In this document: positions 9,491 through 14,242 of the stretch, piece by piece
How positions within the stretch are numbered: position 1 is the stretch's first letter
How the letters are laid out: the number at the start of each line of letters is the position of its first letter
Assembly (NCBI RefSeq): GCF_003334335.1
Contig: NZ_QOWQ01000008.1
Origin: Escherichia coli
GTDB lineage: Bacteria; Pseudomonadota; Gammaproteobacteria; Enterobacterales; Enterobacteriaceae
Strand: one strand, 5' to 3'
Length of the DNA stretch: 64,000 bases
The notes under the pieces: generated by a model
Seen by the model: the letters and a program-made list of their open reading frames with translations, nothing else
Told to the model about the DNA's origin: nothing
The model's database searches: none
Made by a program: the position numbers and the translations under genes

Positions 9491-10044
9491 CAGCGGCCTC
9501 CTGGAGACAGCGGATTTGCCAGCCAGTCACCGTAGGCTCTGGCGTGGCTCGCCAGCTCCTGTGCGCTTTGCCGTCTCGCCCAGTAAATAATGATGGGACT
9601 TAACCAATGCATCCGGCACATGCCCGCCGCCAGTTCAAAGGGGCGCAGCACATCGCTCATCGGGTAGCGATTCAGCGCGTCATAACGGTAAGCACTTTCC
9701 GGCTCGCCGGTGGTAATCACGCTACGCCAGTACTTTCCCGCCAGTTGGTTTCCTCCCGGCCCGCTGGCAAAACCACGACTTAATACCCGGTCCAGCCACT
9801 CTTTCAGTAGCGCCGGGCAGCTATAGGTATAAAGAGGATGCTGAAAGACAATCACCTCGTGCTCGCGCAGTAATGCCTGCTCACGGGGGATATCAATAAA
9901 AAAATCGGGATAGTGCGCGTAAAGGTCGTGCACGGTAACATTGCTGAGCTGCGTGGCCGGTTTAAGCAGTACCCGGTTTGCCACCGAGTCCTGAGATTCC
10001 GGATGGGCATACAGCAGCAAAACTTTCGCTGGCTGAGACATCAT
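9490..10044 (-). CDS. kefG: KefB ancillary flavodoxin-like protein KefG
   Basis: 184-aa [29 protein letters not shown]; overlaps kefB start. Confidence 0.92.
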
Positions 10045-10171
10045 CCCCCTCCCGGTATGGTTTTTGTGTATAGTCGCTGTTTTGGGCTACCATTGCGCCC
10101 GGTGCGGCAGCTCGCCCATACATTACATTATCATAATGATAAGTTAACATAGTCTGAACATACGGCACCTT

Positions 10172-12085
10172 ATGATTGTTTTCTCCTCGTTACAAATTCG
10201 TCGCGGCGTGCGCGTCCTGCTGGATAATGCCACCGCCACCATCAACCCTGGGCAGAAAGTCGGCCTGGTGGGTAAAAACGGCTGTGGTAAATCTACCCTG
10301 CTGGCATTGCTGAAAAATGAAATCAGCGCCGACGGCGGCAGCTACACCTTTCCGGGAAGCTGGCAACTGGCGTGGGTGAATCAGGAAACGCCGGCGTTAC
10401 CGCAAGCGGCGCTGGAATATGTCATTGACGGCGACCGTGAATATCGTCAACTAGAAGCGCAGCTACACGACGCCAACGAACGTAACGACGGGCACGCCAT
10501 TGCGACCATTCATGGCAAGCTGGATGCTATTGACGCATGGAGTATTCGCTCCCGTGCTGCCAGCCTGCTGCACGGCCTCGGTTTCAGCAATGAACAACTG
10601 GAGCGCCCGGTAAGTGATTTTTCCGGGGGCTGGCGTATGCGTCTTAACCTTGCCCAGGCGCTGATTTGCCGTTCAGACTTGCTGCTGCTCGACGAACCGA
10701 CTAACCACCTCGATCTCGATGCCGTTATCTGGCTGGAAAAATGGCTGAAGAGCTATCAGGGCACGCTGATCCTGATCTCTCACGACCGCGACTTCCTCGA
10801 TCCGATCGTCGATAAAATTATTCATATCGAACAACAAAGCATGTTCGAGTACACCGGCAACTACAGTTCGTTTGAAGTACAGCGCGCCACCCGTCTGGCG
10901 CAGCAACAAGCGATGTACGAAAGCCAGCAGGAACGCGTAGCGCATCTGCAAAGTTATATCGACCGTTTCCGTGCCAAAGCCACCAAAGCGAAGCAGGCCC
11001 AGAGCCGCATTAAGATGCTCGAGCGTATGGAGCTAATTGCCCCCGCGCACGTCGACAACCCGTTCCGCTTTAGCTTCCGCGCGCCGGAAAGCCTGCCAAA
11101 TCCGTTACTGAAGATGGAAAAAGTCAGCGCGGGCTATGGCGATCGCATTATTCTCGACTCGATTAAACTGAACCTGGTGCCCGGCTCGCGTATTGGTCTG
11201 TTAGGCCGCAATGGCGCGGGTAAATCGACATTAATCAAACTGTTAGCCGGTGAACTTGCGCCAGTCAGCGGTGAAATTGGTCTGGCGAAAGGGATCAAAC
11301 TCGGCTACTTCGCCCAGCATCAACTTGAATACCTGCGCGCCGACGAATCACCTATTCAACATCTGGCACGTTTAGCGCCGCAGGAGCTGGAACAAAAACT
11401 GCGTGACTACCTCGGCGGCTTTGGTTTCCAGGGCGATAAAGTAACCGAAGAAACGCGCCGCTTCTCCGGTGGGGAAAAAGCCCGCCTGGTGCTGGCATTA
11501 ATTGTCTGGCAGCGGCCGAATCTGCTGCTGCTCGACGAACCGACTAACCACCTTGACCTCGACATGCGTCAGGCACTCACCGAAGCATTAATCGAGTTTG
11601 AAGGCGCGCTGGTTGTCGTTTCGCACGACCGTCATTTGCTGCGTTCCACCACTGACGATCTCTACCTGGTTCACGATCGTAAAGTCGAACCGTTCGACGG
11701 CGATCTGGAAGATTATCAACAGTGGTTGAGCGACGTACAAAAGCAGGAAAACCAGACCGACGAAGCGCCAAAAGAGAATGCGAACAGCGCCCAGGCACGT
11801 AAAGATCAGAAGCGTCGGGAAGCTGAGCTGCGTGCGCAAACCCAGCCACTGCGTAAAGAGATTGCCCGTCTGGAAAAAGAGATGGAGAAGCTGAACGCGC
11901 AACTGGCGCAGGCGGAAGAGAAACTCGGCGACAGCGAACTGTATGACCAGAGCCGTAAAGCGGAGTTGACCGCCTGCCTGCAACAGCAAGCCAGCGCCAA
12001 ATCCGGCCTGGAAGAGTGCGAAATGGCATGGCTGGAAGCCCAGGAGCAGCTTGAGCAGATGCTGCTGGAAGGCCAAAGCAACTGA
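10172..12085 (+). CDS. yheS: ABC-F family ATPase (two ABC cassettes, no TM domain)
   Basis: 637-aa ORF with two Walker A motifs (GKNGCGKST and GRNGAGKST), two LSGG signatures, charged coiled-coil C-terminus. Confidence 0.93.
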   Translation: MIVFSSLQIRRGVRVLLDNATATINPGQKVGLVGKNGCGKSTLLALLKNEISADGGSYTFPGSWQLAWVNQETPALPQAALEYVIDGDREYRQLEAQLHDANERNDGHAIATIHGKLDAIDAWSIRSRAASLLHGLGFSNEQLERPVSDFSGGWRMRLNLAQALICRSDLLLLDEPTNHLDLDAVIWLEKWLKSYQGTLILISHDRDFLDPIVDKIIHIEQQSMFEYTGNYSSFEVQRATRLAQQQAMYESQQERVAHLQSYIDRFRAKATKAKQAQSRIKMLERMELIAPAHVDNPFRFSFRAPESLPNPLLKMEKVSAGYGDRIILDSIKLNLVPGSRIGLLGRNGAGKSTLIKLLAGELAPVSGEIGLAKGIKLGYFAQHQLEYLRADESPIQHLARLAPQELEQKLRDYLGGFGFQGDKVTEETRRFSGGEKARLVLALIVWQRPNLLLLDEPTNHLDLDMRQALTEALIEFEGALVVVSHDRHLLRSTTDDLYLVHDRKVEPFDGDLEDYQQWLSDVQKQENQTDEAPKENANSAQARKDQKRREAELRAQTQPLRKEIARLEKEMEKLNAQLAQAEEKLGDSELYDQSRKAELTACLQQQASAKSGLEECEMAWLEAQEQLEQMLLEGQSN

Positions 12086-13107
12086 TGGCGCAGATAACGA
12101 CGACCGATGCCAATGAATTCAGCAGCAGTGCTGAATTCATCCCCATGCGCGGCTTTAGCAATTGTCATCTGCAAACCATGCTGCCGCGTCTGTTTCGTCG
12201 TCAGGTGAAATTCACCCCGTACTGGCAGCGGCTGGAGTTGCCCGACGGCGATTTTGTCGATCTTGCGTGGAGTGAAAACCCTGCACAGGCGCAACATAAA
12301 CCTCGTCTGGTGGTGTTTCACGGGCTGGAAGGCAGTCTCAACAGCCCTTACGCCCACGGTCTGGTTGAGGCGGCGCAAAAGCGCGGCTGGCTGGGCGTGG
12401 TGATGCATTTTCGCGGATGCAGCGGTGAACCAAACCGTATGCACCGCATTTACCATTCGGGCGAAACCGAAGACGCCAGTTGGTTTTTACGCTGGCTGCA
12501 ACGCGAATTTGGTCATGCGCCAACGGCTGCCGTCGGCTATTCGCTCGGCGGTAATATGCTGGCCTGTTTGCTGGCAAAGGAAGGCAATGATCTCCCGGTT
12601 GATGCGGCGGTGATTGTCTCTGCGCCGTTTATGCTGGAAGCCTGTAGCTATCATATGGAAAAGGGCTTTTCCCGCGTTTATCAGCGTTACTTGCTGAACC
12701 TGTTAAAAGCCAATGCCGCGCGCAAGCTGGCAGCCTACCCCGGAACGCTGCCGATTAATCTCGCGCAGTTAAAATCGGTACGTCGCATCCGTGAATTTGA
12801 CGATCTCATCACCGCCAGAATTCACGGCTACGCCGACGCTATCGACTATTATCGTCAGTGTAGCGCCATGCCGATGCTGAACCGGATCGCCAAACCGACG
12901 CTGATTATTCACGCCAAAGACGATCCGTTTATGGATCATCAGGTGATCCCGAAACCGGAAAGTCTCCCCCCGCAGGTGGAGTATCAACTGACTGAACATG
13001 GCGGTCATGTTGGCTTTATTGGCGGTACATTACTTCATCCGCAAATGTGGCTGGAGTCACGCATTCCTGACTGGTTAACAACGTATCTGGAGGCGAAATC
13101 ATGTTGA
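12085..13107 (+). CDS. yheT: Alpha/beta-hydrolase fold protein YheT
   Basis: 340-aa ORF with nucleophile-elbow-like GYSLGGN motif; start overlaps yheS stop. Confidence 0.88.
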
Positions 13108-13319
13108 TTCCGTGGCAAGACCTCTCCCCCGAAACGCTGGAAAATTTAATTGAAAGCTTTGTGTTACGTGAAGGCACCGATTATGGTGAACATGAGCGTA
13201 CACTTGAACAGAAAGTCGCCGACGTCAAACGCCAGCTACAGTGCGGAGAAGCGGTGCTGGTATGGTCGGAGCTGCACGAAACGGTCAATATTATGCCGCG
13301 CAGTCAGTTTCGCGAATAA
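13101..13319 (+). CDS. yheU: Small protein YheU (unknown function)
   Basis: 72-aa [32 protein letters not shown]; 7-nt overlap with yheT. Confidence 0.82.
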
Positions 13320-13372
13320 CCTGCAACCGTCGGCGGACGAGATAATAATGATAGCTAAGTCATGGAGTTACT

Positions 13373-14242
13373 ATGTCTGCCAAACATCCGGTCATTGCGG
13401 TAACAGGATCCAGCGGCGCGGGGACCACCACCACCAGCCTCGCGTTTCGTAAAATATTCGCGCAGTTAAATCTGCATGCAGCTGAGGTGGAAGGCGACAG
13501 TTTTCACCGTTACACCCGCCCGGAAATGGACATGGCGATCCGCAAAGCGCGCGACGCCGGGCGGCATATCAGCTACTTCGGCCCCGAGGCTAACGACTTC
13601 GGCCTGCTGGAACAAACCTTCATTGAATACGGTCAGAGCGGCAAAGGGAAATCTCGCAAATATCTGCATACCTACGACGAAGCCGTACCGTGGAATCAGG
13701 TACCGGGGACATTCACCCCCTGGCAACCTTTACCGGAACCCACTGATGTACTGTTTTATGAAGGTTTACACGGCGGCGTAGTCACGCCACAGCATAACGT
13801 TGCGCAGCATGTGGACTTACTGGTCGGCGTGGTGCCTATCGTTAACCTTGAGTGGATTCAAAAACTGATCCGCGACACCAGCGAGCGCGGGCACTCACGA
13901 GAAGCAGTGATGGACTCAGTAGTGCGTTCAATGGAAGACTATATCAACTACATCACACCGCAGTTTTCCCGCACCCATCTTAACTTCCAGCGCGTTCCCA
14001 CCGTCGACACTTCAAACCCGTTCGCGGCAAAAGGTATCCCGTCGCTCGATGAAAGCTTTGTGGTGATCCATTTTCGTAATCTGGAAGGGATCGATTTCCC
14101 CTGGCTGCTGGCGATGTTGCAAGGCTCATTCATTTCCCACATCAATACGTTAGTGGTACCGGGCGGCAAAATGGGTCTGGCAATGGAATTAATTATGCTG
14201 CCGCTGGTGCAACGATTGATGGAAGGAAAGAAAATCGAGTAA
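13373..14242 (+). CDS. prkB: Phosphoribulokinase homologue
   Basis: 289-aa ORF MSAKHPVIAVTGSSGAGTTTTS (P-loop kinase). Confidence 0.9.
   Translation: MSAKHPVIAVTGSSGAGTTTTSLAFRKIFAQLNLHAAEVEGDSFHRYTRPEMDMAIRKARDAGRHISYFGPEANDFGLLEQTFIEYGQSGKGKSRKYLHTYDEAVPWNQVPGTFTPWQPLPEPTDVLFYEGLHGGVVTPQHNVAQHVDLLVGVVPIVNLEWIQKLIRDTSERGHSREAVMDSVVRSMEDYINYITPQFSRTHLNFQRVPTVDTSNPFAAKGIPSLDESFVVIHFRNLEGIDFPWLLAMLQGSFISHINTLVVPGGKMGLAMELIMLPLVQRLMEGKKIE

Follow-up and report, generated by a model that had tools for sequence, protein, structure and literature searches.

Background

The system closest to the locus analysed here is YheS of Escherichia coli itself, for which an action on the ribosome is on record. 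Murina et al. reported in 2019 that EQ2-YheS inhibits translation, together with the toxicity of the EQ2 form (PMC6723617), and Chadani in 2024 described that YheS frees SecM-arrested ribosomes in the purified PURE system (PMC11162784). Arrest release was demonstrated with added or over-expressed YheS, and it is lost upon deletion of the linker, deletion of the C-terminal tail, or the E456Q or EQ2 changes (PMC11162784). It depends on ATP hydrolysis (PMC11162784; also PMC13249984). The complex of YheS-EQ2 with the 70S ribosome has been solved twice (PDB 9nlh, bioRxiv 10.1101/2023.06.15.543498; PDB 9vvi, PMC13249984), and in both structures the protein binds in the E site and the P-site tRNA has its CCA end displaced. 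One of these studies combines a 2.8 A structure with mutagenesis (PMC13249984), while a 70S initiation-complex structure and smFRET come from separate work (10.1101/2023.06.15.543498, 10.1101/2023.06.11.543863).

Results and discussion

Identity and class of yheS

The window, that is, the whole stretch of 64,000 nucleotides of E. coli DNA that was analysed, contains on the + strand an intact open reading frame with its ATG at 10172 and its TGA at 12083-12085, which comprises 637 codons plus the stop (10172..12085). These are the boundaries found in RefSeq and also those at which the initial annotation had placed yheS. Over its 637 aa, the product matches YheS of E. coli K-12 MG1655 (UniProt P63389, 637 aa) and of many other strains with 100% identity, and the locus is present in every one of the complete E. 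coli genomes compared (5426 of 5426). PDB chains 9vvi_W and 9nlh_H equal the window protein except for the engineered EQ2 changes (E175Q/E456Q) and a tag, and all 57 residues named in two YheS papers, either as contacts to ATP, rRNA, uL1, uS7 or tRNA or as functionally critical, are present at their published positions. Nothing in this assignment is new as a discovery: publications already cover the gene and its fold, the complex with the ribosome and one biochemical activity. The initial annotation had proposed ribosome binding and cryo-EM of an EQ2 variant on the 70S ribosome as experiments to be done; both had been published, with YheS in the E site, and its statement that a specific ribosomal role was not established is out of date in view of the release of SecM arrest (PMC11162784).

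The YheS equivalog model of NCBIfam (PRK10636) scored 1407.2 bits against a cut-off of 917 and covered residues 1-636 of the 637, and the protein did not reach the equivalog cut-offs of EttA (337/599), Uup (361/900) or the YbiT-type PRK15064 (364/762). In structural comparisons, the top match of the AF2 model was 9nlh_H (E=1.5e-77), followed by ribosome-bound ABCF1, PoxtA, YbiT, VmlR, Uup and EttA, all NBDs of membrane transporters ranking lower. Two cassettes, the lack of a transmembrane segment or a permease, a linker of the ABC_tran_Xtn family and identity to chains bound in the E site place the protein among the ABC-F proteins, and the PRK10636 score, together with a C-terminal coiled coil of at least 80 residues past NBD2, places it in the YheS subfamily. 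These results indicate, with little room for doubt, that yheS encodes an ABC-F ATPase (one of four in E. coli), a soluble ribosome-binding translation factor that acts by the E-site/PtIM mechanism and is not the subunit of a transporter, a class that the initial annotation had already recognised.

More than 11,000 identical entries are labelled "ABC transporter ATP-binding protein" in RefSeq/PGAP, a product name that misleads in the case of a ribosome factor. If taken literally, it would assign YheS to a membrane ABC transporter as its ATPase subunit, and all that speaks for this is the database name itself and the generic ABC_tran domains. No transmembrane segment was found in YheS, whose best 19-residue Kyte-Doolittle window reaches just 1.22, and its two NBDs are fused via an ABCF linker. 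Genes for a permease or a binding protein are lacking within +/-10 kb of yheS; the neighbouring kefG and kefB belong to a CPA2 K+ efflux system and lie on the opposite strand. YheS has, moreover, been solved bound to the ribosome. A role in transport, to which we give a practically negligible probability, is refuted in practice and was rejected.

It could also be asked whether YheS is an antibiotic-resistance (ARE) ABC-F that guards the ribosome from drugs acting at the peptidyl-transferase centre (PTC) or the tunnel. The fold and the E-site/PtIM logic are common to YheS and the ARE-ABCFs, several of them cannot do without a C-terminal extension either, and the generic NCBIfam model for "ribosomal protection-like ABC-F" proteins was passed (431.7 bits vs a cut-off of 380). 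However, every specific ARE model remained far under its cut-off (Sal 314/725, OptrA 311/1450, Msr 264/680, Vga 261/725, CplR 249/780, Lsa 217/750), and YheS works while the tunnel holds a nascent chain, something that the long-PtIM AREs are unable to do (PMC13249984). The susceptibility of a deletion strain to antibiotics, which had also been suggested as an experiment, was already on record: the single yheS deletion shows almost no growth phenotype and minimal change in erythromycin sensitivity (PMC11162784). A resistance function was therefore rejected as very improbable.

Domain organisation

Pfam ABC_tran matched twice, at residues 17-178 and 328-459, which bears out the two nucleotide-binding cassettes described initially. 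NBD1 (residues 1-229; 10172..10858, + strand) carries the Walker A motif GKNGCGKS (34-41), Q71, the ABC signature FSGG (150-153), the Walker B motif LLLLDE (170-175) ending at E175, and the H-switch SHD at 202, with H204. Within NBD1, the Arm subdomain comprises residues 90-121 (nt 10439-10534, + strand; limits from PMC13249984), and it touches uL1 and H76 of the L1 stalk (PMC13249984). NBD2 (residues 313-526; 11108..11749, + strand) repeats this set with GRNGAGKS (345-352), Q382, FSGG (431-434), LLLLDE (451-456) ending at E456, and SHD at 483, with H485; its residues Q408, R411, D412 and G421 contact the P-tRNA at its elbow (PMC13249984).

The linker that had been noted between the cassettes, the PtIM (10859..11107, + strand), corresponds to Pfam ABC_tran_Xtn (PF12848; residues 217-299, E=1.7e-29) and is modelled as two helices (231-267 and 270-285). 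Its contacts to rRNA and tRNA have been reported, the tip meeting PTC-proximal rRNA and the CCA end (PMC13249984). In the direct homologue search, all of the 120 matches listed were at least 83% identical to YheS and nearly all at least 92%; since such close relatives are useless for conservation, a set of 81 homologues with overall identities of 34-55% was drawn from a representative library. The tip of the PtIM (residues 258-285) was the best-conserved stretch of the protein in this set (69% mean identity), with Q275 and S278 invariant in the 81 homologues and F266, A270, Q277, R279 and K281 kept in at least 96% of them.

The C-terminal extension

The last 111 residues (527-637; 11750..12082, + strand) consist of a variable, partly basic connector (527 to about 538), a first helix (539-585, nt 11786-11926), a turn with conserved L585, D587 and Y591, and a second helix (593-636, nt 11948-12079). 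The initial annotation had described a tail rich in K, E, Q, A and R that forms a coiled coil, and composition, heptads and models all agree with it: these five residues make up 59.5% of the tail vs 32.7% of the remaining protein, charged residues account for 35% of it, and regular heptads are conserved across the 81 diverse homologues, whose tails measure 83-129 residues. AlphaFold models show two long helices with pLDDT of 92-98 (97.3 for the hairpin model). Pfam ABC_tran_CTD (PF16326) matches at 560-622, and a profile of the tail matches the C-terminal domain of Uup (2lw1, E=5.6e-4). As judged from the models and these matches, the predicted fold of the tail is an antiparallel coiled-coil hairpin with homology to the C-terminal domain of Uup.

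The resemblance to Uup brings in a further possibility, namely that the tail makes YheS a DNA-binding protein engaged in DNA transactions, as was first proposed for Uup in transposon excision. The profile match just mentioned is in line with it, as is the binding of DNA in vitro by the Uup C-terminal domain, according to Carlier 2012 as cited in PMC6723617. Nevertheless, the tail is needed in a purified, DNA-independent translation assay that starts from mRNA (PMC11162784), and even for Uup, Murina et al. question whether binding DNA is the main role (PMC6723617). The same authors point out that the YheS tail resembles the tRNA-binding arm of ValRS (PMC6723617), and a weak Pfam match to Val_tRNA-synt_C was found at 561-586 (E=0.036). 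A role in DNA transactions thus seemed most unlikely and was rejected.

For YheS as a ribosome factor, deletion of the tail abolishes function in SecM release in the PURE system (PMC11162784), and the tail is invisible in both cryo-EM maps (9nlh, bioRxiv 10.1101/2023.06.15.543498; 9vvi, PMC13249984). A flexible hairpin that is essential in vitro may serve as an extra arm binding nucleic acid or the 30S subunit, which would aid recruitment or the choice of client.

The yheS-yheT-yheU unit and the upstream region

Downstream of yheS, the overlapping unit that had been noted initially was found. The stop codon of yheS and the start codon of yheT overlap by 1 nt (TGATG, position 12085), and 7 nt are shared by yheT and yheU (ATGTTGA, 13101-13107). 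yheT (12085..13107, + strand) encodes a 340-aa alpha/beta-hydrolase (NCBIfam PRK10985, 647 bits; Pfam Abhydrolase_1, E=2e-41), for which sequence comparison at E<=1e-5 gave no relative of solved structure, and yheU (13101..13319, + strand) encodes a 72-aa UPF0270 protein (NCBIfam PRK04966; Pfam UPF0270, E=1.2e-35), related to PA3463 (PDB 1y0n, E=5.5e-9). This arrangement, with overlapping stop and start directly 3' of yheS, is found in the window as in E. coli at large. It was absent beside YheS-subfamily homologues in all 6 informative contigs (41-56% identity), in a sample composed of E. coli and distant homologues; a seventh contig, that of a 79%-identity representative, measures 2.5 kb and is too short to judge adjacency.

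The divergent intergenic region between kefG and yheS has 127 bp (10045..10171). No convincing Shine-Dalgarno sequence precedes the ATG of yheS (ACGGCACCTTATG), and the promoter scan of the region gave only a minus-strand site, TTCAGA-17-TATGAT. A leader or attenuator 5' of yheS of the ARE-ABCF type was considered and rejected: the 127 bp plus first codons fold like shuffled sequences (z=-0.11), no structured leader or leader peptide such as those regulating ARE-ABCF genes was found in the region, and Rfam gave no match in the whole window. The region also contains a perfect palindrome, TTATCAT-A-ATGATAA (10128-10142). It fits the three-hexamer NATWAT description of Fur sites and is the sole such run in the 64 kb, but it does not rank among the top ten fits to the 19-bp Fur consensus, and it is equally readable as two overlapping divergent -10 boxes.

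Action on the ribosome and clients

The published structures and assays, together with some steps of our own, suggest the following course. Closed YheS, with two ATP clamped between NBD1 and NBD2, occupies a vacant ribosomal E site, the Arm gripping uL1/H76 of the L1 stalk and NBD2 meeting the P-tRNA at its elbow. The PtIM points to the PTC, anchored on 23S helices 74, 75, 80 and 93, and takes the place of acceptor-stem nucleotides 71-74, which moves the stem 5-12 A and shifts A76 by about 2 A; up to this point the steps are published. The ordered contacts of the SecM chain with the exit tunnel are then lost and the arrest geometry at Ala164/Pro166 is loosened, which has been observed and published, the shift being the presumable cause. 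Hydrolysis of ATP, for which E175 and E456 are needed (the EQ2 form traps the complex and blocks puromycin), would finally open the NBD dimer and YheS would leave, allowing peptide-bond formation to restart, a step that is published in part and otherwise our proposal.

SecM is the sole client of YheS demonstrated so far, and it is probably neither the ancestral client nor the only one. It is possible, at a little under an even chance, that SecM release is a side activity, and that the true job of YheS lies in other elongation stalls or PTC distortions, or in assembly or quality control of the 50S subunit, under a stress that induces the poorly expressed yheSTU genes (expression of yheS is reportedly low; PMC11162784). 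The yheS deletion has no effect on SecM arrest in vivo and leaves growth unaffected or nearly so (PMC11162784). The YheS subfamily is reportedly older and much wider than SecM, and the authors hold that YheS is not specialised for SecM, because some linker mutations raise its activity (PMC11162784). The near-invariant tip of the PtIM in homologues that are 34-55% identical and whose gene neighbourhoods differ widely points in the same direction, as do the aggravation by over-expressed YheS of the cold-sensitive defect in 50S assembly that a bipA deletion brings about (PMC6723617) and the preference of EQ2-YheS for elongator over initiator tRNA complexes (bioRxiv work). On the other hand, no other client has turned up: TnaC, SpeFL, ApdP and an artificial arrest peptide are not released by YheS, so that its client range may be narrow, and loss of yheS hardly alters the proteome (PMC11162784).

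A more far-reaching version, which we regard as a long shot, would have a client other than SecM selected by the C-terminal hairpin via mRNA, tRNA or the 30S platform, in the manner of the ValRS and SerRS arms, with the coupled YheT (esterase-type) and YheU acting in the same rescue pathway in enterobacteria, for instance on the ester bond of stalled or dropped-off peptidyl-tRNA.

Comparison with known systems

As an E-site factor that moves the P-tRNA, YheS can be compared with several known systems. EttA (YjjK), the founding bacterial ABC-F translation factor, is like YheS in its two NBDs, Arm, PtIM, binding to the E site and trapping by EQ2, and the two proteins are about 28-30% identical with structures that superpose. 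However, in EttA the PtIM is short and stabilises the P-tRNA instead of displacing it, a tail of 18 residues stands where YheS has its coiled-coil domain, and the factor works at the first peptide bond as well as on N-terminal sequences that are acidic. Uup is the only other E. coli ABCF with a coiled-coil C-terminal domain of about 100 residues (ABC_tran_CTD), which, like the YheS tail, is invisible on the ribosome. Unlike YheS, it aids polyproline synthesis as a backup of EF-P; it suppresses the bipA deletion, which YheS aggravates, and it promotes catalytic geometry, which YheS disrupts.

The ARE-ABCFs (VmlR, MsrE, LsaA, VgaA, PoxtA, OptrA) share with YheS the binding to the E site and the PtIM-driven displacement of the P-tRNA's acceptor end, and in some of them the C-terminal extension is essential, as it is in YheS. 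Their PtIMs are longer and reach the drug site, and they act on initiation-like complexes without a nascent chain, whereas YheS requires ATP hydrolysis and works on a ribosome in elongation whose tunnel holds a peptide.

YheS represents the bacterial subfamily nearest to the eukaryotic ABCFs (ABCF1/ABC50, Arb1, Gcn20-type; PMC6723617), and its best non-self matches by sequence were human ABCF1 (9.5e-97) and yeast Arb1 (1.1e-93), which occupied ranks 2-3 and 19 by fold. The eukaryotic proteins differ from it in having N-terminal extensions, in lacking a C-terminal hairpin of the YheS type and in their clients.

The outcome of YheS action, a restart of elongation at a peptide-dependent stall, is also reached by EF-P and by pulling through the translocon. 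EF-P acts from the E site as YheS does, but it stabilises the P-tRNA and is not an ATPase, and Sec acts on the nascent chain, pulling it from outside the tunnel. Unlike both, YheS moves the tRNA and so draws the chain back from the side of the PTC.

Identity and fold of YheS

The plus strand carries at positions 10172-12085 one ORF of 637 codons that runs unbroken to its TGA stop. Its product scores 1407 bits with the NCBIfam equivalog PRK10636 (cut-off 917), is identical to the deposited chains 9vvi_W and 9nlh_H, and carries at the stated positions all 57 of the 57 residues named in the YheS papers; judged from sequence, its identity as YheS is not in doubt. E. coli K-12 MG1655 and a number of further strains match a 3.4-kb query across the gene at 100% identity; all complete E. 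coli genomes (5426/5426) contain the locus, 5424 of them with at least 80% of the query. Megablast of positions 10000-13400 against E. coli genomes hit two places in the median genome, so some part of this region has another short, nearly identical match at a different chromosomal site.

The two ABC cassettes (Pfam ABC_tran, residues 17-178 and 328-459) each contain the complete motif set, namely Walker A (residues 34 and 345), FSGG (150 and 431), LLLLDE (ending at E175 and E456) and SHD (202 and 483). The ABCF-specific linker (ABC_tran_Xtn, E=1.7e-29) covers residues 217-299 and a C-terminal domain (ABC_tran_CTD) residues 560-622. No membrane segment was found in the protein, the top 19-residue hydrophobicity window being 1.22, nor any transporter partner gene within 10 kb on either side. 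The best structural match of the AF2 model was 9nlh_H (E=1.5e-77), followed by human ABCF1, PoxtA, YbiT, VmlR, Uup and EttA, and transporter NBDs ranked much lower than ABCFs. The initial annotation, which described a tandem ABC protein with no membrane domain and a coiled-coil tail, is confirmed in every detail, and its choice of ABC-F over a transporter is upheld by the linker, the PRK10636 score and the ribosome structures. A function as a transporter subunit is refuted by the absent transmembrane segment, the absent partner gene and those same structures.

The EttA, Uup and YbiT-type models scored far under their cut-offs. It is unlikely that YheS is a resistance factor of the ARE type, since all specific antibiotic-resistance ABCF models also scored far under theirs, and a single yheS deletion, the susceptibility check that had been proposed, is already in the literature and barely changes erythromycin sensitivity (PMC11162784). 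RefSeq/PGAP (WP_000634798.1) and most database entries still name it "ABC transporter ATP-binding protein", although YheS is a ribosome factor whose complexes with the ribosome have been solved; one cluster holds 11,109 identical member sequences.

The yheS-yheT-yheU unit and its surroundings

The overlaps reported for this unit were recovered, with RefSeq boundaries equal to those seen in the window: one base belongs to both the stop codon of yheS and the start codon of yheT (TGATG, 12085), and 7 nt belong to both yheT and yheU (ATGTTGA, 13101-13107). The yheT product is of the alpha/beta-hydrolase type (Abhydrolase_1, E=2e-41), and the sequence search gave no solved relative for it; YheU is a UPF0270 protein related to PA3463/1y0n. 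Ousalem et al. (10.1101/2023.06.11.543863) stated that the three genes share a transcript and are frequently neighbours in other organisms. Among the 120 homologues listed by one search, all were close relatives (at least 83% identity, nearly all at least 92%). Seven contigs with more distant homologues were examined. One, with a representative of 79% identity, did not extend far enough to be informative; in the six informative ones, whose homologues are 41-56% identical, neither a hydrolase nor a UPF0270 gene adjoins the ABCF gene (0/6). The linkage is thus real in E. coli but is probably not a trait of the whole subfamily.

The neighbourhoods of these distant homologues are unrelated (globin, TPR protein, glycosyltransferases, HemB/polyphosphate kinase, macro-domain/NADAR), and one contig (L006) has a second ABCF gene 2.5 kb upstream on the opposite strand. 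One ENA metagenome contig has an 891-aa "protein" that matches YheS at 100% identity and runs on into alpha/beta-hydrolase domains (corresponding to 10172-13107). This apparent YheS-YheT fusion is most probably an artefact, caused by a frameshift or by gene calling where the two genes overlap at TGATG. In two proteins of ca. 1,300 aa, a YheS-like ABCF (38% identity) forms the C-terminal ca. 510 residues behind an N-terminal extension of ca. 770 residues.

No structured leader or attenuator was found upstream of yheS, and no Rfam family in the 64-kb window. In the kefG/yheS intergenic region (10126-10143) lies a perfect 7-1-7 palindrome, TTATCAT-A-ATGATAA, which can be read as three consecutive NATWAT hexamers (CATTAT CATAAT GATAAG), the sole such run in the window. 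By its hexamers it resembles a Fur box, but it matches the 19-bp Fur consensus poorly, and it may be no more than two divergent -10 boxes, of kefGB and yheSTU, that overlap.

Further away, rpsG (minus strand) ends with TAA after W156 (2494-2496), with an in-frame continuation of 22 residues; the record labelled K-12 MG1655 has TTA (Leu) there (T at 2495 versus A in that record), and PGAP marks its rpsG as "incomplete". This TTA is the K-12-specific read-through codon behind the 179-residue S7. Since only three differences from that record were found in 25.4 kb (2495, 5450, 19263), one of them the rpsG TAA, the window is K-12-like, yet carries the short S7 allele.

Function on the ribosome

The initial annotation stated that no specific ribosomal role was established; this could fairly have been said some years earlier but is now out of date, because SecM release and structures of the ATPase-dead EQ2 variant (E175Q/E456Q) on the 70S have been published; the proposed checks of ribosome association and cryo-EM of EQ2 have already been done. 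The gene, the fold, the ribosome complex and one biochemical activity are already known. In the PURE system, YheS is the only one of the four E. coli ABCFs that releases SecM arrest, even arrest already formed; stalling by TnaC, SpeFL, ApdP or an artificial arrest peptide is not relieved. YheS activity is abolished by deletion of the linker helix or the C-terminal extension, by E456Q or by EQ2, and EQ2 blocks puromycin (PMC11162784). Release has also been shown in a reporter with over-expressed YheS. In a strain lacking bipA, YheS over-expression worsens the defect at 18 C (PMC6723617).

Structures 9vvi (SecM-arrested 70S) and 9nlh (70S initiation complex) contain YheS-EQ2. At 2.8 A, YheS sits in the E site through contacts of the Arm (residues 90-121) with uL1/H76, and the tip of the interdomain linker (258-285) is anchored on 23S helices 74, 75, 80 and 93; the acceptor stem is shifted by 5-12 A and A76 by about 2 A, SecM density is lost upstream of Arg163, and PTC geometry remains non-productive until YheS departs (PMC13249984). 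E-site binding, P-tRNA displacement and the need for both catalytic glutamates, linker and tail have been shown. Retraction of the nascent chain would be the cause of release, and ATP hydrolysis may serve mainly for dissociation.

Across 81 homologues, conservation in the subfamily is highest at the contact residues near the PTC: Q275 and S278 are invariant, and F266, A270, Q277, R279 and K281 are kept in at least 96%. Arm and uS7 contacts are variable. That the same mechanism serves a client other than SecM is a serious alternative: release of SecM is seen in vitro and upon over-expression, whereas a yheS deletion leaves SecM arrest, growth and the proteome unchanged, the gene is poorly expressed, and its authors' own argument is that YheS predates SecM (PMC11162784). 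The near-invariance of the linker tip in homologues from unrelated genomic contexts also fits an older, more general client. The residual interest of YheS lies in the natural client, the partner of the tail and the meaning of the coupling to yheT and yheU.

The C-terminal tail

In residues 527-637, K, E, Q, A and R make up 59.5% (32.7% in the remaining protein) and charged residues 35%. The tail consists of unbroken heptads whose a/d positions are hydrophobic in 70-100% of the 81 representatives, whose identity to the query is only 34-55%; the conserved hydrophobic positions form two sets (560, 564, 567, 571, 574, 578, 581, 585 and 599, 602, 609, 613, 616, 620, 623, 627), and a turn (L585, D587, Y591) as well as E568, E617 and W620 are also conserved. 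AlphaFold models place two long helices at 539-585 and 593-636 (pLDDT 92-98), predicted to pack as an antiparallel hairpin. The coiled coil had already been predicted by Murina et al. (PMC6723617), and the tail is invisible in both cryo-EM maps.

A DNA-binding role, as in early proposals for Uup, is unlikely, since the tail is required in an mRNA-programmed purified translation assay (PMC11162784). We suggest that this flexible coiled coil could be an additional RNA- or 30S-binding arm. In a profile search, its top non-self match was the C-terminal domain of Uup as solved by NMR (2lw1, E=5.6e-4), and its resemblance to the tRNA-binding arm of ValRS, noted by Murina et al. (PMC6723617), reappears in our Pfam scan as the same weak match (Val_tRNA-synt_C, E=0.036).
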